Source of the DNA: Candidatus Methanoperedens sp.
Lineage (GTDB): Archaea > Halobacteriota > Methanosarcinia > Methanosarcinales > Methanoperedenaceae
Length of the DNA: 32,000 nt
Direction: 5' to 3'
Assembly (NCBI GenBank): GCA_027460535.1
Contig: JAPZAR010000027.1
Span: 60,001 to 92,000 of the forward strand
Below the pieces are notes generated by a model. That model saw only the letters and a list, made by a program, of their open reading frames with translations, did no database searches and was not told where the DNA came from. The position numbers and the translations under genes are program-made. Below, piece by piece: positions 1 through 31,222 of this stretch; the stretch's first letter is position 1; each line of letters begins with the position of its first letter.

Positions 1-432
1 CATGCCTGCCAGGAAGTACCCTCCATCCTCGCAAGGCCCAATGACAATATCAACTTCATCCAATCGTCGCAGCGCCTCCCGTATATAATCCGGGGGCAGG
101 TTTGGAGTATCGCTATCCAGCATCACAACCTTCTCAAAGCCTCGATCAAACAGGATATTCGATATGTTTGCAAGTCTTTCACCAAGATCAGCACCCACCT
201 GGCTGATGAGAGTAAACGCAGGAGGTATGATGCTTCGAAAAAATTTCTCTTCGGCGACAGGTGTATAGGCCAAAAAGGGTTGCGCTTCCTTTATAGTTTT
301 AACCTGCTCAATCTTATCCAGCAGGAAATTATGATAGAGGCGAGCTGCTGCTTCCGGTTTCAGCGGAGGGGTCAGCCTGGTCTTGACTTCATTCGGTAAA
401 GGTGCCTTGGCCATAATTACAATCGCGTCCAT
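1..432 (-). CDS. DUF2064 / TIGR04282-like GT-A fold glycosyltransferase; only the N-terminal 144 codons are in the window and the 3' end runs off the left edge
   Basis: My own translation of the minus strand from the ATG at 432-430 gives MDAIVIMAKAPLPNEVKTRLTPPLKPEAAARLYHNFLLDKI...FEKVVMLDSDTPNLPPDYIREALRRLDEVDIVIGPCEDGGYFLAGM. This has the family pattern KaP.pG.VKTRL, a DxD-like DSD and P.eDGGY.L.G. The frame is open to position 1. The start lies 4 nt after the upstream methyltransferase stop. Confidence 0.7.
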   Translation of the reverse strand, partial: MDAIVIMAKAPLPNEVKTRLTPPLKPEAAARLYHNFLLDKIEQVKTIKEAQPFLAYTPVAEEKFFRSIIPPAFTLISQVGADLGERLANISNILFDRGFEKVVMLDSDTPNLPPDYIREALRRLDEVDIVIGPCEDGGYFLAGM

Positions 433-436
433 AGGT

Positions 437-1246
437 TTACGCCTTTTTACCTATCAGCCTGCCCCATCCCACTTTTCCCTCGTCTGCAGCCCTGACCCAT
501 TCATGAAGACCCTGATCAGCCACCTGGAATATCTTTTCTCCATACTGCTCAATTATCAAATTTTTCAATTCGTTGCGAAGCTTATTCTGGTATATGTGAC
601 AATGACAGACAAAATCTTTGCTTATGTCCTCTATTTCTACAATCGCAAAACCCTCTTCCATCAATAATTGTTCATATCCCTCCAGCGTTTCCATGTATGG
701 GAATGCCATGAAATTATTGAGGTTCTCCCACTCCATATCAGTCATATTTCCTGTCTGTATCCAATCCGTAAAAGCGATAGTTCCTCCCGGTTTCAGAACC
801 CTGTGGGCCTCGCTTATCAGCTTTTTCTTATCTGTAATATAGCACCAGGCATCCTGCCCCCAAACCACATCGAAAGTGCCTGCATGAAAAGGCATGTCCA
901 GGGCATTCCCCGGCCTGAAAGTGACAAGATGGGAGAGACCTTCACTTTTCGTTCGCTCGGTAGCTTCGTTCACCATCTTTATTGTGGCGTCAAGCCCCTT
1001 CACCCTGCATCCATACTTCCGTGCCAGGTGCCTCGCTGGCCCGCCCAGGGCGCTGCACACGTCCAGTACCATCATGTTCCTGGTTATCCTCGCTTTCTCG
1101 GCCAGAATCTCTGTCTCACGCTCGCCCCCCACGTGAATTTCTTCCCCCATCAGCGCCTCCCATAATACACCCACCGGGCCTTCATATATTCCATTAACGT
1201 CTGCTATGGTGAAATCCAGTCTTTTTCCTTTTACAATTTTATCCAT
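437..1246 (-). CDS. Class I SAM-dependent methyltransferase (Methyltransf_11-like; resembles sarcosine/dimethylglycine and phosphoethanolamine N-methyltransferases)
   Basis: 269-aa ORF. SAM-binding motif I is VLDVCSALGGPARHLA. It also has the acidic loop GLD, post-I DVVWGQDAW and LKPGGTIAFTDW. It overlaps the upstream radical SAM gene by 8 nt. Confidence 0.85.
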   Translation of the reverse strand: MDKIVKGKRLDFTIADVNGIYEGPVGVLWEALMGEEIHVGGERETEILAEKARITRNMMVLDVCSALGGPARHLARKYGCRVKGLDATIKMVNEATERTKSEGLSHLVTFRPGNALDMPFHAGTFDVVWGQDAWCYITDKKKLISEAHRVLKPGGTIAFTDWIQTGNMTDMEWENLNNFMAFPYMETLEGYEQLLMEEGFAIVEIEDISKDFVCHCHIYQNKLRNELKNLIIEQYGEKIFQVADQGLHEWVRAADEGKVGWGRLIGKKA

Positions 1247-2324
1247 TTTTCATTTTTCCGGCATTTGAATAATTATCAGGGTTCATCCAGCATTTTGGAT
1301 CAGGTGCGAGCATGTCCCCTGTTTCATAATATGCCTGCGCCCTGCATCCCCAGCACACCGAATTATTTTCACATGTCCCGCAGTATCCCTGCATATTGCC
1401 CGGATTCCGGATGTGAGTTAGAAGGAGATTATCTCTCTGCTGCTCAATTATATTTTCCAGAGAAGTCTCATGGATATTCCCAAACCCTTTCCTTATGACA
1501 GAACATGGTGTAACGTCCCCGTCAATGGTAACACATACAATCCCGCCGCAATAGAACTTATTGGCATCCATGGTGCTCATTGAAAGACTTGAATTAGAGT
1601 AGTTGACCTCATCCCTGAACTCGCATGCTTCCCTGATATTCCGGATGCTGGGGCTCCATTCGGGATGTTCCAGGGCAAGACCTGCCATGCACATCTGGGT
1701 CAGGCAGGTTCTCATACCTTTTTCTTCGAAGAAGAATCTGGTCGTCCTCCTGACATCCTCTCCGGCAACAAGGTTCGTGAATGTGATGCAGTTGATCATA
1801 TTCTCGGGTCTCTTGCCAAGGGATTGGATATTATCAATGCCCTGTAATATCGCTTTTATCTTCTTTTCCGGATCCCCTGTGTGGAGCCTGCCATATATTC
1901 CTTCATCAAGACTATCAAGATGCACTGATATGAACCCCCCTTCTGACATCTCGACTGCTTTTCTTGCCACATCTCTATTCTCCAGTGGAATTCCGCTTGT
2001 CCAGATATTGTTCCTCAAACCCTTATTCATGGCATACTGCATCAGTTCATACCAGTCTTCACGCACAAGTGGATCGCCGCCGAGCCAGTCGATGGCTTTA
2101 ACTCCCATCCCTGCCGCGGAATCAATGACTGCAAGGATGTCTGATGCCGGAAGCTCTTTCATCGGTGCGCCCCCGGAAAAAGCATAACAGTAAAGGCATC
2201 CCTGGGGGCAGGCGAGATTTGACTCGATCTGAACGGAATACACTTTCCCTTCATTGAAATACCTCATTTCTTCGGAATAATCCGGATGCAGGCAGCCGCA
2301 GGTCATTACAGACTCGTTACCCAT
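1239..2324 (-). CDS. Radical SAM protein with C-terminal SPASM/twitch-type auxiliary Fe-S cluster domain
   Basis: 361-aa ORF. The CxxxCxxC motif is CPQGCLYC near the N-terminus. A GGDPL glycine-rich SAM motif is present. C-terminal Cys clusters are CGGIVCVTIDGDVTPCS and CGTCENNSVCWGCRAQAY, typical of SPASM. Confidence 0.85.
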   Translation of the reverse strand: MGNESVMTCGCLHPDYSEEMRYFNEGKVYSVQIESNLACPQGCLYCYAFSGGAPMKELPASDILAVIDSAAGMGVKAIDWLGGDPLVREDWYELMQYAMNKGLRNNIWTSGIPLENRDVARKAVEMSEGGFISVHLDSLDEGIYGRLHTGDPEKKIKAILQGIDNIQSLGKRPENMINCITFTNLVAGEDVRRTTRFFFEEKGMRTCLTQMCMAGLALEHPEWSPSIRNIREACEFRDEVNYSNSSLSMSTMDANKFYCGGIVCVTIDGDVTPCSVIRKGFGNIHETSLENIIEQQRDNLLLTHIRNPGNMQGYCGTCENNSVCWGCRAQAYYETGDMLAPDPKCWMNPDNYSNAGKMKNG

Positions 2325-2385
2325 CTTATATCACATCAGCATTCAGTAAACTTGTTCAGCATATATATCTGTATTGATTCCAAAT

Positions 2386-3039
2386 TCATCGGATAGAAAG
2401 CAGAGGAATAATTATCATCAAAATGGCCCAGGCAAAACAAAGCTTTGAGACCGCAAACCCTCCCAGCGTTTTGACATATCTCTCCATTGCAGCGAGCGGG
2501 ATCAGTACCAAAAGCATGGCGTTGAAGATGGTCGTGGGAATATCATGTTCTACCGGCAGGTCATTGAGGAAAGGAGCCGGATTTGACCACCTTGTCACAA
2601 AGAATATCAGAGGCATGTGTGCAAGCCCGATATAGGAGAAGTTCAAAAGATGTATCGAAAGCCACGCCCTGAGTCTCGGATTCGGATGCATGAGTTCGGT
2701 GCCCCCTTTCTCAACCAGGAATAAAATGACAACGACGATGAGGAACGCGATAGCGATGATAATACCAGTATCCCACGGCAGGATGGCAAGCATGGTCGGG
2801 ATGGTCACCACGAAAGCGGAAATGACCGTTATCAGCTGGCAGGAGAGCTTTCTCAGATTATATGCCAGGCCCACCGTTATGAAAACTATGGGGATAATGA
2901 AGTTATGCCCCCAGCGAGGGTCTTTCTCAAATAAAGGGTATGCGGGGCCGAGCCAGAATAAAAGCCATGCTATTCCTATCAATAAAAATGCTGTGCCGAC
3001 TGTCATGGCCTTGTCTAATTCAAGTTTTAACGTTCCCAC
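2386..3039 (-). CDS. Hypothetical polytopic membrane protein (about 6 predicted TM helices); first gene of the minus-strand cluster
   Basis: 217-aa ORF made of long hydrophobic segments. I recognise no family motif. It is co-directional with, and 61 nt upstream of, the radical SAM gene. Confidence 0.6.
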   Translation of the reverse strand: MGTLKLELDKAMTVGTAFLLIGIAWLLFWLGPAYPLFEKDPRWGHNFIIPIVFITVGLAYNLRKLSCQLITVISAFVVTIPTMLAILPWDTGIIIAIAFLIVVVILFLVEKGGTELMHPNPRLRAWLSIHLLNFSYIGLAHMPLIFFVTRWSNPAPFLNDLPVEHDIPTTIFNAMLLVLIPLAAMERYVKTLGGFAVSKLCFAWAILMIIIPLLSIR

Positions 3040-3085
3040 TGATAACCATATTAATTTTTAAATATTTGAGAGTTTCTCTATCCGT

Positions 3086-3778
3086 ATGATCTCTATAATT
3101 ACGCCGCTTCTCAACGAGGAAGGCTATATCGAGCCTTTCATTTCTCATCTCAGGGAGCTGCAAGGTGATTTTGAACTGATACTGGTGGACGGCAAAAGTA
3201 GCGACGGAACATTGGAGGAAGCGGGAAGATGCAGGAAGGGATTCGAGCACAGGTTTATTCTGCTGGAAGGTTCTCGCGGCAGGGCCAGCCAGATGAACGT
3301 GGGCGCAAAGAATGCCCGGGGAGATATCCTGTTATTCCTCCACGTGGACTGTTTTATCCCGAAGGATTCGCTCTTTCTGATTGAGAGAACGGTTTATCAA
3401 GAAATGGCTGCAGGTGGGGGTTTCAGGCAGGCTTTTGCCAATCCTGATACGTTCTTAAAGCTCCAGAGCGCCATCGGGAACATGCGCGCAAAGATCACAG
3501 GGACATTCTACGGGGATTACGGGATATTTATGAGAAAAGATATTTTTGAAAAGATGGGCGGGTTCGATAATGTTCCCTTCCTTGAGGATGTGGAAATCTG
3601 CAGGAAAGCAAAGAAGTTCGGCAGGCTTGCCCGCATAGACCGGGTCATAACCACATCACCCAGGCGGTATCTGAGCAAGGGAAGAGCCAGGCTGATGGCT
3701 GCCTTCATTCTTGCCATCTTGTTCAATGCGGTGGGTTTGCACCCCGGGTTCCTTACAGAATATATCGTGGATAAATAG
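3086..3778 (+). CDS. Family-2 glycosyltransferase, TIGR04283-like
   Basis: 230-aa ORF. Motifs seen: ISIITPLLNEE, ELILVDGKSSDGT, GRASQMNVGA, GDILLFLHVDCFIP, YGDYGIFMRK, LEDVEICRK and TSPRRYLSKG. These match the pattern I recall for this GT2 subfamily. It is divergent from the membrane-protein gene across a 46-bp spacer. Confidence 0.8.
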   Translation: MISIITPLLNEEGYIEPFISHLRELQGDFELILVDGKSSDGTLEEAGRCRKGFEHRFILLEGSRGRASQMNVGAKNARGDILLFLHVDCFIPKDSLFLIERTVYQEMAAGGGFRQAFANPDTFLKLQSAIGNMRAKITGTFYGDYGIFMRKDIFEKMGGFDNVPFLEDVEICRKAKKFGRLARIDRVITTSPRRYLSKGRARLMAAFILAILFNAVGLHPGFLTEYIVDK

Positions 3779-3817
3779 AGGAGGTTTAGGAATTACGATA
3801 GTGTCAAAAAGTTTGTG

Positions 3818-3916
3818 TTGATATTCCCTGCATGTTCCTTCTATCTTTTCCTGCTGCTCTTCACTTTGCATGATCAATATTGCATTCCCGCCTATCGCTA
3901 TTACTATCCGGCTCAT
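3818..3916 (-). pseudogene. Possible relic of the 5' end of a carbamate kinase (amino-acid kinase family) gene
   Basis: ORF 3656..3916 begins MSRIVIAIGGNAILIMQSEEQQEKIEGTCREYQ. The xRIVIAxGGNAl motif followed by an EEQ segment is the typical carbamate kinase N-terminus. After about 33 codons the frame runs antisense into the GT2 gene and loses all resemblance. Confidence 0.3.
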
Positions 3917-3957
3917 ACTTTTATCATAATTAGCTTGATCCTTTTTATTTTACTTGT

Positions 3958-4797
3958 TCATTTCATGCCGATATTTTCCGCTTTTTTCCACAGGTCATTA
4001 AAATGCTCCAGGTATGACTCAAATATTCCGTCTTTGCTGCGCGTGAATTCCATGGTCGGACAAGCTCTTCGTCTCTTATTATATAAATAAGGTGTTACTC
4101 TCATCAGATTTTCATCTATGATCGTCATGGCGCACAATGGATAGTTATCGTAAAATCTTATTTCCACATTTTGTTTAAATTCATCTTTTAAATTCTTCAT
4201 AAACTCTTTTTCAAGATTATGCAGGCGAATTATTTGACCTTTGAGGTTTTCATTGTTTTCATCCTTTTCCCTATATGCTACATGTGGTGAGTCTGGATTC
4301 AAGATCAAGATCTGCAAAGTACATCCCTCCTCTACAATAGATTTAAGTCTTGTCCATTCGTCGCTGTCGGGATAGAAATAATAATTGAGCGATACACCCA
4401 GCAATTTAATATTTTTTGTGGCAAGATCAAGGATATCGGTACTTCCTCCTTTTTTATACACGTTTAGAAGTCCGGATTTCCTGACAGATTCACTTATTGA
4501 TTTTACTTTTTCACAGTGTTGTGTTATCATGAACATGAAGTTGGTTCTGAAAAACTCCTCAATAAGATCCATCATATTCCTGCGTAAGAAATATTCATAG
4601 AATAATATCGCAAAACCAATGATTATCAATGCAATCCCTATTTCTTTGAACACATCCTCCCTGATAATGGAAATCAAGTCTTTGTCTGGTGATACCAGTA
4701 TGACGATGATTGCACCTGAGATAAGAATAGATAAAGAGAGAAGAATTATTTTATAAAATAAAACCAGTTTTAATAATTTCTCTGCTATTTGTGCCAT
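3958..4797 (-). CDS. Hypothetical membrane protein: two N-terminal TM helices plus a ~180-aa soluble C-terminal domain (tentatively DUF5919 / PLD-like fold)
   Basis: 279-aa ORF. TM segments are LVLFYKIILLSLSILISGAIIVILV and IGIALIIIGFAILFYEYFL. The C-terminal pattern is KLLGVSL...LQILILNPDSP...VEIRFYDNYPLCAMTIIDENLMRVTPYLY...HFNDLW. The DNA is very AT-rich: one 60-nt line counted by hand is 20% GC. Confidence 0.6.
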   Translation of the reverse strand: MAQIAEKLLKLVLFYKIILLSLSILISGAIIVILVSPDKDLISIIREDVFKEIGIALIIIGFAILFYEYFLRRNMMDLIEEFFRTNFMFMITQHCEKVKSISESVRKSGLLNVYKKGGSTDILDLATKNIKLLGVSLNYYFYPDSDEWTRLKSIVEEGCTLQILILNPDSPHVAYREKDENNENLKGQIIRLHNLEKEFMKNLKDEFKQNVEIRFYDNYPLCAMTIIDENLMRVTPYLYNKRRRACPTMEFTRSKDGIFESYLEHFNDLWKKAENIGMK

Positions 4798-10321: not shown

Positions 10322-10720
10322 TTACTTCTTGATCATGGTTTTTATTTCATTAAGTACAAAATTTGCATCATCGAGAGCCTTTTTAGCATCTTCATTCGTA
10401 AAATCTTTCTCGCCATAGAATGAAGGCGCTCTTGCTTCTGCAAGCCATCTGGATATCCTTTCTATCTCTTTGAGCGAGCTTTCTTTAAAGGGGAACTTTT
10501 TGCCGGCTTCTATGGTAAAAATGCCCCCAGCATCATGTACTTTAGGGTAATCGATCCCTAATATTCGCAAGCATCCCTTGAGAGTTAGCTCAACCACTTC
10601 CTGCGCCCTTCTTACAGCGATGTTATAGTTTTCTTCTTCTACAGCAGTTTTCAGGTCTTTTTCGAATATCCATTCCGCCTCTTTCAACAGTTTCTCCCCA
10701 AACTCCCGATTCGTTGTCAT
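10322..10720 (-). CDS. HEPN domain protein (PF05168-type partner of a minimal nucleotidyltransferase)
   Basis: 132-aa all-helical ORF with NYNIAVRRAQEVVELTLKGCL, YPKVHD and ARAPSFYGE...EDAKKALDDANFV. It overlaps the upstream NTase gene by 4 nt. Confidence 0.8.
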   Translation of the reverse strand: MTTNREFGEKLLKEAEWIFEKDLKTAVEEENYNIAVRRAQEVVELTLKGCLRILGIDYPKVHDAGGIFTIEAGKKFPFKESSLKEIERISRWLAEARAPSFYGEKDFTNEDAKKALDDANFVLNEIKTMIKK

Positions 10721-11199
10721 AGTTCGAGGATTTCTCCAGCCTTTAGGTCAGGCTTTAACTGCCAGTACCATGTGTTGTCCTTGAGAGTCACTTTTCTTGA
10801 ACCAAGCTGGATGAGCCGATTTTTCAGTTCTTTCAGCCTGTTTTTGAAAAAGTTATCTTTATCGAACAGGATCACTGAGTCATCTATCATGTCCAGAAAA
10901 ATATTGCGATTTTCCATCGCCTCTTCTTTTGATAAGATTATGCTGCTGAAGATCGGCGCCGTTCCTGAGATGTTCTTTCGCAGTTTTATCTCGATGTCTA
11001 TTACAGGTTCCAGGCGTTCATAATACGCAGCGGGAGCGTTCTTTAAAATGATAAGGAGGTCTATATCGCTTTCTTCTTTTGCTGTACCTCTGGCTACTGA
11101 ACCGTAGAGGACTACAGAAATAAGATTATCTCCAAATTTCTTTAGAAGCGATTGTCCAAATCTGGTGAGAATTTCTTTATGATCTTTGTAACCGCGCAT
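10717..11199 (-). CDS. Minimal nucleotidyltransferase (MNT) domain protein
   Basis: 160-aa ORF with the pol-beta superfamily motif LYGSVARGTAKEESDIDLLIIL. Confidence 0.85.
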   Translation of the reverse strand: MRGYKDHKEILTRFGQSLLKKFGDNLISVVLYGSVARGTAKEESDIDLLIILKNAPAAYYERLEPVIDIEIKLRKNISGTAPIFSSIILSKEEAMENRNIFLDMIDDSVILFDKDNFFKNRLKELKNRLIQLGSRKVTLKDNTWYWQLKPDLKAGEILEL

Positions 11200-11819: not shown

Positions 11820-12136
11820 GAGTATTTTGCAAGCTTCTTAAGTTCTGCCGTGATCATCTTAATTCCGTCAAGAGCGAGTTCCCAATCACAGTAATCCTCT
11901 TCAACCTTAAAAGAATGACCTGATTCTTTTACGACCTGTTTCATCTTGAGTTCATCAAAATCCATTTTATAACGCTCATGAAAAGTCTTATCCATCAACT
12001 TATATTCGGCAAGACGCCTGCGCAATTCGTTAATTACTAGCTGGATTGTACCCTCCTCAGGTTCTTTTTTTAAGAGATTTTGGTAGATATATTGGAATTC
12101 GGAGGGAAGTTTTACTGAGACTGGCATTTTATTCAC
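11816..12136 (-). CDS. Small hypothetical protein, putative cognate antitoxin of the TumE-like gene (paralog B of 10023..10316)
   Basis: 106-aa ORF with an ATGA stop/start overlap to the downstream toxin-like ORF. It is about 71% identical to paralog A over 76 aa. Confidence 0.65.
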   Translation of the reverse strand: MNKMPVSVKLPSEFQYIYQNLLKKEPEEGTIQLVINELRRRLAEYKLMDKTFHERYKMDFDELKMKQVVKESGHSFKVEEDYCDWELALDGIKMITAELKKLAKYS

Positions 12137-12288
12137 CTATTAGCTTTTAGTTCTAATGAGTTATTAAAACTTTCCTGAAAGAGCTATCAGAATTAGGGTT
12201 TATAGTATTTCTCGCATCCTTGCATATAGGCGCGAAAGGGAGGGGAGCGGGTAGGGAGATAGTGTAAGCAAAATAGTTGCCCATAGAT

Positions 12289-12921
12289 TCATTTAGAAGA
12301 TGCTTTGAATGAAAACTCTTCTAATCTTATAATCCGTTCTTCTATGGAAGGGTGAGTTGGGCGATTTGCAAAATAAATCACATTAATAAGCTCTTGAAAC
12401 CTTGAAAAAGGCTGGTTTTTAGCGCATTCTTTCACCTTTTTTAGCGCAGAAATCAATGCTTTAGCATTTCCAAGACCTACAGAAATTTTATCTGCTCCAT
12501 ATTCGGATTTTATTTTTAGATTTATCATATGATTCAAAAGGGAAAATCTTAATACTAAAAATGTAAAAAGTAATGGTAACCATATCTCCAAAAATCTAAT
12601 TTTAAAATAAAATAATAAATTTAAAACTATGAATACACCTAGAACTAATAATGTTAAAGGCATTAGAAAATAAATTATTAAAAATAGGTCTTTCCATCTT
12701 TTTATATGACCCAACTCATGATCTAAGAATGCAAATTGTTCATCTTTATTTAACTTCTCCAGAACTATTGAATATATAATGACTCCAAAAAAGAATGCGC
12801 CTGCATTCATTTCATCGGAAGCTATTTTCAAAAGAAGAACAGGATGCCGTATTCCCAGTTTTTTCTTGCTTTTATTAAAATGAGATTTTAAATCTCCTTT
12901 ATTTATAAGGCTTATTGTCAT
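12289..12921 (-). CDS. M48-family (HtpX-like) membrane zinc metalloprotease
   Basis: 210-aa ORF with HEXXH (DHELGHI) followed by hydrophobic helices, and the C-terminal M48-type motif RPTHPSIEERIIRL. The DNA is extremely AT-rich: one 60-nt line counted by hand is 23% GC. Confidence 0.75.
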   Translation of the reverse strand: MTISLINKGDLKSHFNKSKKKLGIRHPVLLLKIASDEMNAGAFFFGVIIYSIVLEKLNKDEQFAFLDHELGHIKRWKDLFLIIYFLMPLTLLVLGVFIVLNLLFYFKIRFLEIWLPLLFTFLVLRFSLLNHMINLKIKSEYGADKISVGLGNAKALISALKKVKECAKNQPFSRFQELINVIYFANRPTHPSIEERIIRLEEFSFKASSK

Positions 12922-12937
12922 TTTAATTATAAAAATC

Positions 12938-15685
12938 TCAACTTAAAGTCTCCCTCACCATCTCTACACCCCTCTCAAGCGCCTCCTCAATCCTCCCAGC
13001 ATCCGTCCCCCCGCCCTGCGCAATCCCCGGCTTCCCTCCTCCTCCGCCGCCCACAAGCTTTGACATCTCGCGCACGATAGCGCCCGCATTCACCCCCATC
13101 TTTTGCGCCCGCTCACCCGCCGCCACCACGAACTTAACGCCGCCGAGGTCGCTTGCCAGGAGCACCACAAAATCGTCATCCTTGCTGAACTCCGTGGCTG
13201 CTTTTATGAGTTCTTCCACGTCTGCGTGTGTCAGCTTCTTGCAGAGAACTTTCAGGCCGCTTATACTCACGGCTTCGCTCATCATCGCTTTAACCCTCAC
13301 CTCAGCCAATTCAGCCTTCAGCCGCTCGTTATCCTTCTTAAAATCCTTCCATTCGTCGAAAAAACGATTGACCGTATCAGGCAACTGTTCAGGCGAAACC
13401 CTCAGGCCTTCCGAGGATCTATTCAGCAATTCGTCCCTTTCCTGCCACCGTTTGATGGCAGCCTCACCTGCCGAGAACTCAATGCGCTCCACGCCATCCT
13501 GTATCCTTTCTGTCTTGATGAGTTTGATGGGCCCGATAAGCCCCGTGTTCGAGACATGCGTTCCCCCGCAGGCTTCCACGTCGTTCCCCACTCGCAGGAT
13601 GCGTATCTCCTTTCCCGGAGGCACGCCGCCCTGATAGAGTACGAAACCATAGCGCTTTTCCGCCTCCACCCTGTCCATCCAGTCTATGTGCACGGGCTGG
13701 TTTTTCATCACCGCTTTGTTAGCGAGCAATTCGATTTCCCTGAACTCCGAATCCGTTATACGCTTGTAATGTGTGAGGTCAAGCCTTGCCCTGTCCGTGG
13801 ATTTCTGCGCCCCGGTCTGCCAGATATGATTTCCGAGGACAATTTTTGCTGACTCGTTAACGATATGCGTGGCTGTGTGATGGCGGGCATGGGCCATTCT
13901 GCGCTCCACATCTATCTTTCCCTTCACCCTGTCTCCCTTCTTAAATCCAAAATCCGAGTCTGTCTCATGGACAATGACCCCGTTAATGCTCTGGGCATCC
14001 ACTACATTCACAAGAAAATCATCCACTGATAAAGTCCCTTGGTCTGCAGGCTGGCCTCCTCCCTCAGGATAGAACAGGGTCTGGTCAAGGATTATTTTGT
14101 TCTCAATGACCGATAGTACGTGTGCAAAAAATTCCGTCTTTTCCGGATGTTCATAATACAGCTTTCGTGTTGGCTGTATCTCAAGCGGCAGGACTTCTTT
14201 TTCTTCCTCTTCTGCTTTGCTGTGTTTTTTTGCCACAAGCGAATAGAAGGTATCAGGCAGCTCCACTTCCACGTCTGTTTCTTTTGCCACCTCCCGCGCG
14301 ATCTCGGGCGGGATGCCGTGCGTGTCATATAACTGGATCAATTCCCCAAGCGGTATTTTTTGCTTTTTTTCCTTGAAATGCCCTGCCATTTTTCTGACCA
14401 GTTTTGATCCGCGTTCAATTGTGTCGGCGTATTTTTCCTCCTCAAGCGTAACGATCTCTCTGATGGTATCAAGACGCTCCCTGAACTCAGGATATTCCGG
14501 GAAGTTCCTGATCTGCATCTCGATGAGTTCTACGAGTGGCTCTCTTATACCAAGGGATTTCATCATGCGTAGAGTCCTTCGAAGCACAAGCCTCTCAAGA
14601 TAGCCTGCCTTCACATTGGAAGGAATAATGCCGTCACCCAGCATGAAGGCAAGGCACCGGGTATGATCCGTGATTGAGTATACGGTTTCTACGGGTTCCA
14701 TCAGATTCTGGAGTTTTTCTACAGTAGTGCCGATGCTTTCCGCCACCTTCTTTCTTAACTGGAGAAGATTCGCCTGCCCGCTGATATCCATTACCCCTGC
14801 GAATCTCGCGTTCTGAGAGAATATTTTCGCATATTCTGGATTCTCTATGCTGTGTTCGATACCCGCAAGGTCCATTAGTTCAGAAACGATCTTGGGGAAA
14901 ACAGCATCATATATCGTTGGCGAGCCTTTGGACGCCCAGACAAACCGCTCCAGGCCATAGCCTGTGTCGACGATATAATTATCCATTTTCTCATAACGTT
15001 CCCCCTTGATGTCTATCGGCCCATCTTTTGCCTGCTTCAGGTCCATGAAGACAAGTGTGGCAAGTTCAAGCCCGCCCACAAGCACTTCCACGCTGGGGCC
15101 GGCATTGCCCCCTCCTGCCCATGGGGATTCCTTATATGTTACTGAATTCAGGTCAAGACCAAGATCTGATAGCAGGGTATCGCATAATTCCACTGTCCTG
15201 TCCTTCCAGTAAATCTCGTTCTCACGCGAGTTGAAAGCATGATGGGCCATCATCTCAAAAGTGGTGAGGTGGCGGCCGCTTCGCCCCACAGCGTCCAGGT
15301 CATCAAGCCTGATGCAGGGCTGTGAAATGGTGAGAGGGTTCGCTGGCGGCGGAACAAGCCCGGATGTCACAAAGGGTTGGAAATCTGCTATTGAAGCGAT
15401 CGTCAGGTAAATATCATCTCGCCAGCGTGCGATTACAGGATACCGTTTTACACGCGTGTGGCCATGTCTTTCGAAAAATGATAAATATGCTTCGCGCATG
15501 GAGGAAATATCGTATTCTTTTTTGAACACAGGGTTGCCGATAAAAGTGTATGATACGCATGGAGGATCCCCACAAAATTCAGTTTCTTCATCCCGCGTCC
15601 AGAAATTCGTGCCGCATTTTGGGCATTGTTTTCGCACAAAGCCGTTCTCTTTGAAATAATCCAGTTGATACTCGTCATCAGGCAT
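12938..15685 (-). CDS. alaS: Alanine--tRNA ligase (archaeal type)
   Basis: 915-aa ORF. It has an N-terminal Zn-ribbon-like CPKCGTNFW...C..PPC, the class II core (FEMMAHHAF, GGGNAGPSVEV), the editing-domain HxxxH/CxxxH motifs (HHTATH, ACGGTH) and a C-terminal DHHA1-like domain ending in a Gly run. Confidence 0.97.
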   Translation of the reverse strand: MPDDEYQLDYFKENGFVRKQCPKCGTNFWTRDEETEFCGDPPCVSYTFIGNPVFKKEYDISSMREAYLSFFERHGHTRVKRYPVIARWRDDIYLTIASIADFQPFVTSGLVPPPANPLTISQPCIRLDDLDAVGRSGRHLTTFEMMAHHAFNSRENEIYWKDRTVELCDTLLSDLGLDLNSVTYKESPWAGGGNAGPSVEVLVGGLELATLVFMDLKQAKDGPIDIKGERYEKMDNYIVDTGYGLERFVWASKGSPTIYDAVFPKIVSELMDLAGIEHSIENPEYAKIFSQNARFAGVMDISGQANLLQLRKKVAESIGTTVEKLQNLMEPVETVYSITDHTRCLAFMLGDGIIPSNVKAGYLERLVLRRTLRMMKSLGIREPLVELIEMQIRNFPEYPEFRERLDTIREIVTLEEEKYADTIERGSKLVRKMAGHFKEKKQKIPLGELIQLYDTHGIPPEIAREVAKETDVEVELPDTFYSLVAKKHSKAEEEEKEVLPLEIQPTRKLYYEHPEKTEFFAHVLSVIENKIILDQTLFYPEGGGQPADQGTLSVDDFLVNVVDAQSINGVIVHETDSDFGFKKGDRVKGKIDVERRMAHARHHTATHIVNESAKIVLGNHIWQTGAQKSTDRARLDLTHYKRITDSEFREIELLANKAVMKNQPVHIDWMDRVEAEKRYGFVLYQGGVPPGKEIRILRVGNDVEACGGTHVSNTGLIGPIKLIKTERIQDGVERIEFSAGEAAIKRWQERDELLNRSSEGLRVSPEQLPDTVNRFFDEWKDFKKDNERLKAELAEVRVKAMMSEAVSISGLKVLCKKLTHADVEELIKAATEFSKDDDFVVLLASDLGGVKFVVAAGERAQKMGVNAGAIVREMSKLVGGGGGGKPGIAQGGGTDAGRIEEALERGVEMVRETLS

Positions 15686-23320: not shown

Positions 23321-23430
23321 GCCCAGGTGGCCTAGTTGGTTAGGGCGCCAGACTCATAGGGTAAAATTTGAAGAGGCGCTAAGCTTCCTGAGAAATCTGG
23401 AGGTCACGGGTTCGGATCCCGTCCTGGGCA
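23321..23430 (+). tRNA. Elongator-type tRNA with CAT anticodon (Met; Ile2/agmatidine identity not excluded) carrying a ~36-nt intron at the canonical 37/38 position
   Basis: Acceptor stem is GCCCAGG/CCTGGGC plus a discriminator A. The anticodon arm is CCAGA-CTCATA[23359-23394 intron]A-TCTGG and the T arm is ACGGG-TTCGGAT-CCCGT. The exons sum to 74 nt. Confidence 0.85.
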
Positions 23431-30211: not shown

Positions 30212-31222
30212 ATGGTAATTATGAATAAAGAATCTACTATTTTCAAAAATATAATTGCTGTGCTGCTTATTTTGGGATTGGCGGCAGGAACGGCGAGTGC
30301 GACGCAGGCGCCGGTAAATCTTGGAACAGCCGGAAATTTCGTGATTCTGGCAAAAACAGGAATCTCAACCACTGGAACGACCTCGATTGTTGGAGATATC
30401 GGAGTGAGCCCAATCGCCAGCACTGCCATAACTGGATTTGGGTTAATAATGGATGCCTCGAATAAATTTTCCACGTCATCTCTAGTGACCGGAAAAGTAT
30501 ATGCAGCCAACTATGCGCCCCCAACTCCATCTACAATGACCACGGCCGTAAGCGACATGCAAACCGCGTACACTGATGCATCCGGACGAACATCACCCGA
30601 TCATACTGAACTGGGTGCCGGAAATATTGGTGGGATGACACTCACTCCTGGTCTTTATAAATGGGGGACCGGGGTTACAATACCCCCCGGTGGAGTCACT
30701 CTATCGGGCGGCGCAAATGATGTCTGGATATTCCAGATAGCGCAAGATCTCACCGTGGCCAACGGTGCTAAAGTTACTCTTAGCGGGGGCGCACAGGCCA
30801 GTAACATCTTCTGGCAGGTCGCCGGCAAAACGACCATTGGAACGACTTCTGACTTCAAGGGAATTATCTTGTCTAAAACGCTGATTTCGCTGAACACCGA
30901 CGCAACGCTAGACGGCAGAGCGCTGGCACAGACCGCGGTTACATTAATTGCCAATGTTATCACCGCCCCTGGCGTTAACCCGACAAACACCCCGAGGAGC
31001 ACAGGTGTGGTAACAGGAACTCCGGCTAATCCAACAGTTACGGCTACTCCAGCTAAACTAACAGTTACTGCTACTCCCACTAAATTAACAGTTACGGCTA
31101 CTCCAGCTAAGCCAACAGTTACAACTACTCCGGCACCAACAAATAAGGTACCGGGATTTGAATTTGCACTTGCAATAGCCATACTTTCGGTGGCTTATCT
31201 GTTCGGCAAAAAGAGAAGGTAA
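30212..31222 (+). CDS. Secreted ice-binding-like (DUF3494) protein with a Thr/Pro-rich repeat linker and a PGF-CTERM archaeosortase sorting signal
   Basis: 336-aa ORF with a GGAGG SD. It has a signal peptide (ILGLAAGTASA), the DUF3494 start LGTAGNFVILAKTGISTTGTTSIVGDIGVSP, the tandem repeat TVTATPAKL, and a C-terminal VPGFEFALAIAILSVAYLFGKKRR. Confidence 0.85.
   Translation: MVIMNKESTIFKNIIAVLLILGLAAGTASATQAPVNLGTAGNFVILAKTGISTTGTTSIVGDIGVSPIASTAITGFGLIMDASNKFSTSSLVTGKVYAANYAPPTPSTMTTAVSDMQTAYTDASGRTSPDHTELGAGNIGGMTLTPGLYKWGTGVTIPPGGVTLSGGANDVWIFQIAQDLTVANGAKVTLSGGAQASNIFWQVAGKTTIGTTSDFKGIILSKTLISLNTDATLDGRALAQTAVTLIANVITAPGVNPTNTPRSTGVVTGTPANPTVTATPAKLTVTATPTKLTVTATPAKPTVTTTPAPTNKVPGFEFALAIAILSVAYLFGKKRR
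31034..31141 (+). repeat. Four tandem copies of a 27-bp unit (ACAGTTACGGCTACTCCAGCTAAACTA-like) encoding the (T)VTATPAK(L/P) linker
   Basis: The units at 31034, 31061, 31088 and 31115 are read directly from the sequence. They lie in frame inside the ice-binding-like gene. Confidence 0.9.

Follow-up and report, generated by a model that had tools for sequence, protein, structure and literature searches.

In bacteria, the glycosyltransferase-like protein families TIGR04282 and TIGR04283 occur in arsenosugar clusters together with the radical S-adenosylmethionine (SAM) enzyme ArsS (TIGR04167, with a DUF3641 domain) and the methyltransferase ArsM (NF038099), and NCBI labels both families "arsenosugar biosynthesis glycosyltransferase". 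Here, we analyze a cluster of five genes which comprises the same four functional classes and is located at the left end of a 32,000-nucleotide stretch of DNA (hereafter "the window") from Candidatus Methanoperedens sp. (assembly GCA_027460535.1, contig JAPZAR010000027.1, positions 60,001 to 92,000 of the forward strand). The cluster encodes a DUF2064/TIGR04282 protein, a class I methyltransferase (MT1), a radical SAM enzyme with a SPASM domain (rSAM), a polytopic membrane protein (MEM), and a family 2 glycosyltransferase (GT2) of the TIGR04283 type. Its two glycosyltransferase-like proteins thus are of the same families as those in the arsenosugar cluster, and an arsM gene lies next door in this genome. 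In contrast, the rSAM has a SPASM domain for two auxiliary clusters and no DUF3641, MT1 is SDMT/PEAMT-like with one conserved Cys, the orphan seven-helix protein MEM is added, and most genomes with the cluster lack a nearby ars gene. Judged by these family assignments, the cluster falls outside the definition of the ArsS/ArsM arsenosugar system. The three families at its core (rSAM, MT1, and MEM) are uncharacterized. We tentatively propose, as a reading that is possible although it falls somewhat short of being probable, that the five genes form one horizontally mobile module by which an unusual nucleotide-activated, rSAM-tailored, and methylated sugar would be delivered to the membrane or cell surface.

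Further described systems resemble the cluster in parts. Mycobacterial capping with methylthioxylose (MTX) reportedly starts from methylthioadenosine (MTA) and proceeds via methylthioribose-1-phosphate (MTR-1-P) and nucleoside diphosphate (NDP)-MTR, which is epimerized before the GT2 MtxS (Rv0539) forms decaprenyl-phosphate-MTX; the GT-C enzyme MtxT (Rv0541c) is then said to transfer MTX to lipoarabinomannan. Nucleotide activation, a polyprenyl-phosphate GT2, and transfer by a GT-C enzyme are the logic in common, and bacterial and Bathyarchaeial relatives of our cluster carry a GT2 of the AglJ/Dol-P type and a GT-C of the GT87/MptA_B type beside DUF2064-rSAM-MT1. That mtxS is responsible for making the lipid donor has been described (PMC12088412). 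Unlike the cluster analyzed here, the MTX system has neither an rSAM nor a methyltransferase, whereas our cluster is devoid of an MTA phosphorylase and an SDR epimerase, and the window version has a TIGR04283 GT2 and MEM in place of the GT-C. The arsinothricin pair ArsL and ArsM is similar in that a radical SAM enzyme and then a methyltransferase act on one small substrate, and in one lineage the rSAM-MT1 pair resides in an ars island. However, the rSAM contains a SPASM domain, lacks the RCCLKC tail, and does not match NF040542, and the AST-type ArsM model reaches only 54 bits on MT1 (cut-off 240). The mycofactocin system also combines a SPASM radical SAM enzyme (MftC), a TIGR04283-related GT2 (MftF), and a methyltransferase (MftM), but here the precursor MftA as well as MftB, MftD, and MftE are missing, and the scores for MftC (64 vs 265 bits) and MftF (35 vs 280 bits) remain far below the cut-offs. 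Among named families, the tetrapyrrole SPASM enzymes AhbD, NirJ, and AhbC score highest on the rSAM, yet at 77–106 bits against cut-offs of 500–650, and clustering of neighboring open reading frames (ORFs) revealed no tetrapyrrole genes conserved beside rSAM. On these scores, the cluster belongs to the TIGR04282 and TIGR04283 families and not to ArsL, AhbD/NirJ, mycofactocin, SDMT, or PEAMT.

Organization of the gene cluster

The features of the cluster are as follows (window positions; aa, amino acids; HMM, hidden Markov model).

1..432, minus strand: 5′ part (144 codons) of the DUF2064/TIGR04282 gene, which runs past the window edge; the complete protein has 223 aa
437..1246, minus strand: MT1, class I SAM methyltransferase with SDMT/PEAMT architecture, 269 aa (family matches and alignment)
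1239..2324, minus strand: rSAM, radical SAM enzyme with full SPASM domain, 361 aa (motif and HMM)
2386..3039, minus strand: MEM, orphan polytopic membrane protein, 217 aa, GTG start (AlphaFold2, ~7 helices)
3040..3085, no strand: divergent intergenic region, 46 bp, AT-rich (direct sequence reading)
3086..3778, plus strand: GT2, TIGR04283 family, 230 aa (HMM)

The complete DUF2064 gene is found on the parent contig (locus L001) at 11893–12564. The rSAM and MT1 genes overlap by 8 nt, the DUF2064 gene starts 4 nt past the MT1 stop codon, and the MEM gene is situated 61 nt upstream of the rSAM gene. Because of this tight packing, with one overlap of 8 nt and gaps of only 4, 61, and 46 nt, we regard the cluster as a single operon. 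The 46-bp gap between MEM and GT2 contains ATTAATTTTTAAATATTT and the TATA-like TTTTTAAATATTT; it is presumed to be a shared archaeal promoter. The ORF coordinates, the overlap, and the 4-nt and 46-bp gaps are exactly those given in a first-pass annotation of the window, which had been made from the DNA letters and had singled out this cluster.

Family affiliation of the encoded proteins

The rSAM contains the radical SAM motif C39x3C43x2C46. A comparison of 232 sequences from archaea and bacteria shows nine further conserved Cys residues (179, 207, 259, 274, 315, 318, 324, 327, and 345), which suffice for two auxiliary clusters plus one. They include the SPASM pattern C259-x9-G269-x4-C274 ... 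C315x2C318x5C324x2C327 ... C345, in addition to C179 and C207, and the rSAM thus has the seven Cys of SPASM domains with two auxiliary 4Fe-4S clusters. The HMM scores (55.9 bits for PF04055, 26.2 vs 21.5 for the SPASM model PF13186, and 32.9 vs 27 for TIGR04085) agree with the first-pass annotation, according to which the enzyme is of the SPASM type and not ArsS/DUF3641. Pfam found only PF04055 and PF13186 and thus no DUF3641, and ArsS was absent from the best 25 NCBIfam matches, each of at least 28 bits. None of the cut-offs for characterized equivalogs was reached in the NCBIfam search: the models for AhbD, NirJ, and AhbC scored 106.5, 104.9, 84.9, and 76.9 bits, with AhbD (106 vs 500) and NirJ2 (105 vs 500) as the best-scoring named families, followed by PqqE (75 vs 381) and the abovementioned MftC. 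The C-terminus, ...DPKCWMNPDNYSNAGKMKNG, lacks the arsenite-binding RCCLKC motif defined for ArsL (bioRxiv 10.1101/2024.02.01.577332), and ArsL-type chemistry was rejected for want of this tail. A spare three-Cys arsenite site was also considered and rejected; the conservation of C212 and C264 does not extend beyond archaea. There is no N-terminal extension that could hold an RRE/PqqD domain, with the core beginning at about residue 30. The AlphaFold2 model of the rSAM (predicted local distance difference test score, pLDDT, 92.5) has generic SPASM/twitch proteins as Foldseek neighbors (template modeling score ~0.6, 12–20% identity), namely SkfB, SuiB, MoaA, PqqE, BlsE, anSME, GDGT-MAS, DesII, EpeE, and viperin. 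The nearest solved relatives include the nucleotide-sugar or nucleotide enzymes BlsE, DesII, MoaA, and viperin. By motif and family scores, the rSAM represents an uncharacterized and highly conserved SPASM subfamily that is distinct from ArsS, ArsL, AhbD, NirJ, PqqE, and MftC.

For MT1, the best family match was SDMT (NF041675), with 117 bits vs a cut-off of 550. The protein aligns end to end with the Galdieria SDMT and the Plasmodium PEAMT (PfPMT), including the C-terminal lid. At the position of the catalytic His of PfPMT (His132), MT1 has the invariant Tyr136, which is flanked by the invariant W134-C135, and the position of the phosphate-binding R179 of PfPMT is hydrophobic (F/M). The motif Q131-D132-x-W134-C135-Y136 is invariant in 52 MT1 orthologs. 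C135 is the sole invariant Cys among them, and MT1 therefore is without the As(III) site of ArsM. Consistently, ArsM models scored 32–59 bits on MT1 vs cut-offs of 240–510 (NF008823, 59 vs 263; NF038099, 32 vs 400; the AST-type model as given above). The earlier description of MT1 as SDMT/PEAMT-like rather than ArsM is thus borne out, although MT1 resembles sugar O-methyltransferases (6uv6, RebM) as well as N-methyltransferases and, going by score and active-site residues, lies outside the SDMT and PEAMT families proper despite the common architecture.

Both glycosyltransferase-like proteins pass the NCBI cut-offs of the families to which they had been likened before. For DUF2064, the window fragment (144 aa) reached 134.1 bits and the full-length protein (223 aa) 188.8 bits on TIGR04282 (cut-off 134), and PF09837 scored 89.6 bits (cut-off 25.8). 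A weak match to CofC was also obtained, and the sole solved DUF2064 relative is 3cgx, a "putative nucleotide-diphospho-sugar transferase" from structural genomics (E = 1e-33). The protein has a CofC/MobA-like nucleotide-diphospho-sugar-transferase fold, and we propose that it acts as a nucleotidyltransferase. GT2 narrowly passed the TIGR04283 cut-off (193.1 vs 182 bits over residues 2–221), scored 68.7 bits on PF00535, and weakly resembled ArnC and further polyprenyl-phosphate glycosyltransferases. Its C-terminal segment is hydrophobic from near residue 200. As acceptor of the sugar transferred by GT2, we propose a lipid phosphate or another lipid.

MEM has no match in Pfam or NCBIfam. AlphaFold2 predicts about seven helices (pLDDT 91), whereas six transmembrane (TM) helices had been counted in the first-pass annotation; the membrane protein itself is located where it had been placed. 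The model has no fold match in the PDB (best Foldseek E = 0.55), and a profile search retrieved 37 relatives among 1.84 billion representative proteins. Residues D40, R42, W43, H45, N46, H130, H141, R150, E164, and E186 are invariant. MEM is a candidate translocase or transferase for a lipid-linked product. The only extra domain found is an N-terminal ferritin-like domain on two clusters of MEM relatives: in some Bathyarchaeia, MEM carries this di-iron four-helix-bundle domain (locus L021, 12587–13753; P0364 and P0371), and the fusion of the L021 type adjoins rSAM-MT1 with GT2 and DUF2064 not nearby. In Methanoculleus and relatives (L045, L047–L051, L053, L057–L059, and L061), MEM is missing and GT2 abuts rSAM divergently, and MEM therefore is dispensable in that lineage.

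Conservation and distribution of the cluster

Searches with the rSAM from the window and with its homolog from Chlorobi retrieved 575 proteins at E ≤ 1e-10 and 507 proteins at E ≤ 1e-20, respectively. Sequence identity was 55–77% across archaeal phyla and 45–48% to bacteria. A locus scan with one genome per species found 174 loci, of which 80 were kept. The archaeal carriers among these 80 include Methanoperedens, ANME-2-type Methanosarcinales, Bathyarchaeia, Thermoplasmata, Methanomassiliicoccales, and Methanomicrobiales, with Methanoculleus sediminis, M. nereidis, and Methanosphaerula subterraneus as cultured representatives, and the bacterial carriers include Chloroflexi, Actinomycetota, and Chlorobiaceae, the last with Prosthecochloris vibrioformis DSM 260. 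Neighboring genes were counted in those 53 loci that have at least 4 kb on both sides of rSAM and that span at least eight archaeal and bacterial phyla (DUF2064 was counted within 8 kb). MT1 was located directly downstream of rSAM in 53/53 loci, and this arrangement, being retained in many phyla, is not due to chance. DUF2064 was near rSAM in 41/53 loci, any GT2 in 38/53 (the TIGR04283 type in 31/53 and the AglJ/Dol-P-hexose-transferase type in 8/53), DUF2064 and GT2 together in 34/53, and MEM in 24/53. GT2 was divergent from the rSAM operon in 31 of the 53. All-against-all clustering of the neighboring ORFs in 87 loci revealed no sixth recurring family beyond lineage-specific synteny.

All five genes are conserved together in Methanoperedens, Methanomicrobiales, Thermoplasmata, Methanomassiliicoccales, and Bathyarchaeia; bacteria share four of the five. 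The previous suggestion of a pathway undescribed in archaea stands with regard to the difference from the known system, but the module is not specific for archaea. Within genera the distribution is patchy, as Methanoculleus species exist with and without the cluster, which fits an accessory and horizontally mobile module. No plasmid-borne copies of the cluster were found in PLSDB, and Rfam detected no riboswitches but only tRNAs in the window and nine bacterial loci.

Combined delivery by a GT2 and a GT-C enzyme is the standard architecture for sugar transfer via a polyprenyl-phosphate carrier, and several relatives of the cluster encode both; the nearest precedent is the mycobacterial MTX pathway. 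Operons with the gene order GT2-DUF2064-rSAM-MT1-DinB_2 occur in L084, L086, and a JGI contig; their GT2 is AglJ-like and their DUF2064 scores 161–169 bits on TIGR04282. The order in L094 is GT2-DUF2064-rSAM-MT1, two unknowns, and a GT-C of the GT87/MptA_B type. In the bacterial and Bathyarchaeial relatives, the AglJ-like GT2 reaches 110–129 bits and GT87 43 vs 25 bits. GT-C neighbors are of the GT87/MptA_B (L094 and L087) or PMT_2/TMEM260_N (L084 and L086) type or belong to our cluster 17 (L005, L009, L012, L026, L065, and L079). Loci from Bathyarchaeia, Chloroflexi, and Actinomycetota add an AglJ-like GT2, a GT-C-like membrane protein of 410–477 aa, and a small 4-TM protein. Moreover, two gene fusions were found, DUF2064::rSAM with 621 aa (P0358; L086, 7001–8866) and GT2::DUF2064 with 468 aa (L085, 11228–12634).

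Some of these loci contain additional genes. A second, different SPASM radical SAM enzyme (350 aa) is encoded beside the GT2::DUF2064 fusion in L085 and has its best matches among metalloenzyme and tungsten-cofactor maturase families. A DinB_2 protein of ~150 aa recurs beside the bacterial rSAM-MT1 (L083, L084, L085, L086, L089, and the JGI contig). A family-less protein of ~600 aa recurs in L085 and the JGI contig, and family-less proteins of similar size are encoded in L092 and L093. Directly upstream of the GT2-DUF2064-rSAM-MT1-...-GT87 operon in L094, positions 832–4493 encode a large protein of the HZS_alpha (hydrazine-synthase alpha-like) type and a PQQ beta-propeller protein.

Genomic links to arsenic

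A true arsM gene (277 aa; NF008823, 355 vs 263 bits) is located 36 nt beyond the DUF2064 gene of the Methanoperedens cluster. It is accompanied by a gene for a Cys-rich AbrB-family protein of 89 aa, which passes the model "HgcAB-associated protein HgcC" (127 vs 70 bits). The position of this gene pair is as follows.

L001 12600..13718, directly left of window position 1: arsM and AbrB-family gene, both convergent with DUF2064

A different arrangement was found in P. vibrioformis DSM 260 and a relative (rSAM 87% identical), in which an arsC-like gene, rSAM, and MT1 constitute one operon that is divergent from arsR-thioredoxin(ArsE)-ArsP-arsC-acr3 (acr3, 453 vs 283 bits). These loci are the following.

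L082 6044..11842, L090 2128..7905, and L091 2128..7905: Prosthecochloris loci linked to ars genes

An SMR quaternary-cation exporter is encoded downstream of the rSAM-MT1 pair in Prosthecochloris. The AbrB-like genes adjoining the cluster in L001 and L082 share no homology. Altogether, ars genes are adjacent in two of ~25 independent lineages (~90 loci; p ~0.04 as a rough estimate), and no ars gene was found near any other of the ~90 loci examined. Arsenic is a possible substrate. The first-pass annotation had assumed a pathway that resembles arsenosugar synthesis but is different. This holds for the rSAM and the methyltransferase, whereas the adjacent arsM and the ars island in Prosthecochloris do not permit dismissing arsenic.

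Proposed pathway and alternative explanations

From the gene families and their arrangement we infer the following catalytic assignments, order of steps, and nature of the sugar. The DUF2064/TIGR04282 protein would act as a nucleotidyltransferase which converts a sugar-1-phosphate to an NDP-sugar. The SPASM rSAM would then tailor the nucleotide-linked sugar by radical chemistry, with epimerization, deoxygenation, decarboxylation, and the formation of a carbon-heteroatom bond as candidate reactions; these two steps are probably adjacent because a DUF2064::rSAM fusion exists. MT1, translationally coupled to the rSAM, may subsequently methylate a heteroatom of the product. At the cytoplasmic face, the TIGR04283 GT2 would attach the completed sugar to a membrane lipid or to a lipid phosphate that serves as carrier, and MEM would flip the product or pass it to the final acceptor, a task that would be performed by the GT-C enzyme in bacteria and Bathyarchaeia. 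The arsenosugar and methylthioxylose routes suggest by analogy that the sugar most likely is a 5-deoxy-5-substituted pentofuranose which stems from the adenosyl moiety of SAM; its substituent would by default be other than arsenic. The family scores, the co-conservation of the genes, and the placement of the rSAM outside all characterized families support the earlier interpretation as a related but different pathway.

Several observations weigh against a surface-directed, non-arsenic sugar module. The cluster contains no aminotransferase, dehydratase, phosphorylase, or nucleosidase that would define the sugar, and the window version has no recognizable GT-C but the TIGR04283 GT2 and MEM instead. 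Rv0540 of the mycobacterial MTX cluster is a putative DUF2064 protein, and a full-text literature search turned up no publication on DUF2064, TIGR04283, or Rv0540. Loci with only rSAM and MT1, with or without DinB_2, exist in Chlorobiaceae and in L037, L039, and L089, and the product of the pair may therefore be a free small molecule, with glycosylation in some organisms only. Finally, a purely non-arsenic reading leaves the arsenic links unexplained, that is, the true arsM and the Cys-rich AbrB/HgcC-like neighbor in the own genome as well as the placement of rSAM-MT1 in the Prosthecochloris ars island.

These arsenic links would be accounted for if anaerobes had a true pathway to organoarsenicals (arsenosugars or arsenolipids), in which the SPASM rSAM would be a non-orthologous replacement of ArsS. 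The rSAM would join the 5′-deoxyadenosyl moiety of SAM to a methylated As(III) species, for which the neighboring ArsM would supply the As-methyl groups, and MT1 would contribute one more methyl group, placed either on the arsenic as the third (yielding an arsonium) or on the 2-O of the ribose. From the arsenical nucleoside, a riboside or lipid would be formed by DUF2064 and GT2, in line with what has been proposed for clusters of ArsS, ArsM, TIGR04282, and TIGR04283. Such a pathway would agree with the passing of the NCBI "arsenosugar" cut-offs by both glycosyltransferase-like proteins, and with the patchiness, inter-domain transfer, and restriction to anoxic sediments, which match the behavior of ars genes. 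The lost catalytic His of MT1 may also fit this reading, as a tertiary arsine, for instance, would act as nucleophile without being deprotonated. We nevertheless consider it rather unlikely, because adjacent ars genes in two of the ~25 lineages are only mildly above chance and because MT1, in which just one Cys is invariant, lacks the set of three or four Cys with which ArsM binds As(III) and scores far below the ArsM cut-offs. Furthermore, the rSAM lacks DUF3641 and the RCCLKC tail, was not among the best ArsS-type matches, and has no spare three-Cys site conserved in both archaea and bacteria. A broader variant, which we regard as distinctly less likely still, is that the rSAM is a new oxygen-independent enzyme for carbon-heteroatom bonds. 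It would couple the 5′-deoxyadenosyl carbon of SAM to arsenic, sulfur, or selenium, and MT1, with an aromatic pocket and no catalytic His, would then methylate the heteroatom to an onium (trimethylarsonio, dimethylsulfonio, or similar).

The loci with the rSAM-MT1 pair alone bear on another alternative, according to which rSAM and MT1 would produce a soluble small molecule in free form. Examples would be a redox cofactor, a thiol derivative of low molecular weight, or a compatible solute with a methylated onium group. Glycosylation of this molecule by DUF2064 and GT2 would occur in some lineages only, as MftF does with mycofactocin, and DinB_2 in bacteria and MEM in archaea would be accessory. 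In 8/53 full-flank loci, rSAM and MT1 have neither GT2 nor DUF2064 nearby, and DinB_2, which has the fold of thiol S-transferases and of the N-terminal domain of EgtB, recurs beside the bacterial pair. In addition, no family is closer to the mycofactocin glycosyltransferase MftF than TIGR04283, the SDMT/PEAMT architecture of MT1 is complete, and in Prosthecochloris the quaternary-cation exporter adjoins the pair. On the other hand, the GT-C enzymes, the GT2 of the polyprenyl-phosphate type, and the membrane proteins indicate a destination at the membrane or surface, the scores for MftC, MftF, and SDMT are far below the cut-offs, and a precursor peptide, MftB/RRE, or an amino-acid-activating gene is not present. 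In sum, a soluble product appears improbable. It is even harder to envisage that the rSAM matures a ribosomally synthesized and post-translationally modified peptide (RiPP) that is subsequently methylated and glycosylated. SPASM enzymes often are RiPP maturases, and the peptide maturases SkfB, SuiB, and CteA are the nearest solved structures by fold. However, the gaps of 4, 61, and 46 nt leave no space for a precursor gene, no conserved small ORF or other conserved family was found in the 87 loci, the rSAM core from about residue 30 onward is not preceded by an RRE/PqqD domain, and 55–77% identity across phyla is atypical for RiPP enzymes. We therefore judge a peptide product to be highly improbable. 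Known archaeal lipids were considered as products and rejected. For the aminopentanetetrol head groups (N-methylated C5 polyols) of Methanomicrobiales, the cluster is too patchy within this order; Methanospirillum hungatei and Methanoculleus marisnigri were not among the matches listed, though those reach down to 45% identity. For butanetriol dialkyl glycerol tetraethers (BDGT) or other methylation or desaturation of lipid tails, the published enzymes are B12-dependent radical SAM enzymes, and this rSAM has no B12 domain.

Other features of the window

Further features were observed outside the cluster (GC, guanine plus cytosine content as a fraction).

3958..4797, minus strand: DUF5919 protein (279 aa) with hydrophobic N-terminal stretches, adjoining GT2
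10322..11199, minus strand (L001 1126..2003): HEPN and nucleotidyltransferase (NTP_transf_2) gene pair amid housekeeping genes
12001..14000: step in GC from 0.33 (12001..13000, peptidase M48) to 0.55 (13001..14000, 3′ part of alanyl-tRNA synthetase, minus strand)
23321..23430, plus strand: tRNA of 110 nt detected by Rfam (58.5 bits)
30212..31222, plus strand: ice-binding-like protein (PF11999, 272 bits)

The DUF5919 region has a GC of 0.35 vs ~0.47 and is not conserved beside the cluster in other genomes. The 110-nt tRNA is not called by ARAGORN; its length suggests an intron-containing archaeal tRNA.

Implications

In annotation pipelines, two of the five genes carry an arsenosugar glycosyltransferase label, though the partner enzymes differ from those of the arsenosugar cluster and are uncharacterized. 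Either hundreds of archaeal and bacterial genomes thereby carry a misleading annotation, or there is a second, unrecognized organoarsenical route in anaerobes. The cultured carriers Methanoculleus sediminis, Methanosphaerula subterraneus, and Prosthecochloris vibrioformis DSM 260 make this question directly testable. If the rSAM indeed formed carbon-heteroatom bonds that MT1 converts to an onium, the module would be an anaerobic source of arsenosugar-type or onium-sugar lipids in archaea and bacteria of anoxic sediments, and possibly a microbial entry to trimethylated arsenicals such as precursors of arsenobetaine. The rSAM, its obligate partner MT1, and MEM are widespread in methanogens, methane-oxidizing archaea, Bathyarchaeia, Thermoplasmata, Chlorobi, Chloroflexi, and others, and what they produce could serve as a new biomarker, either lipid or glycan, for anoxic sediments.

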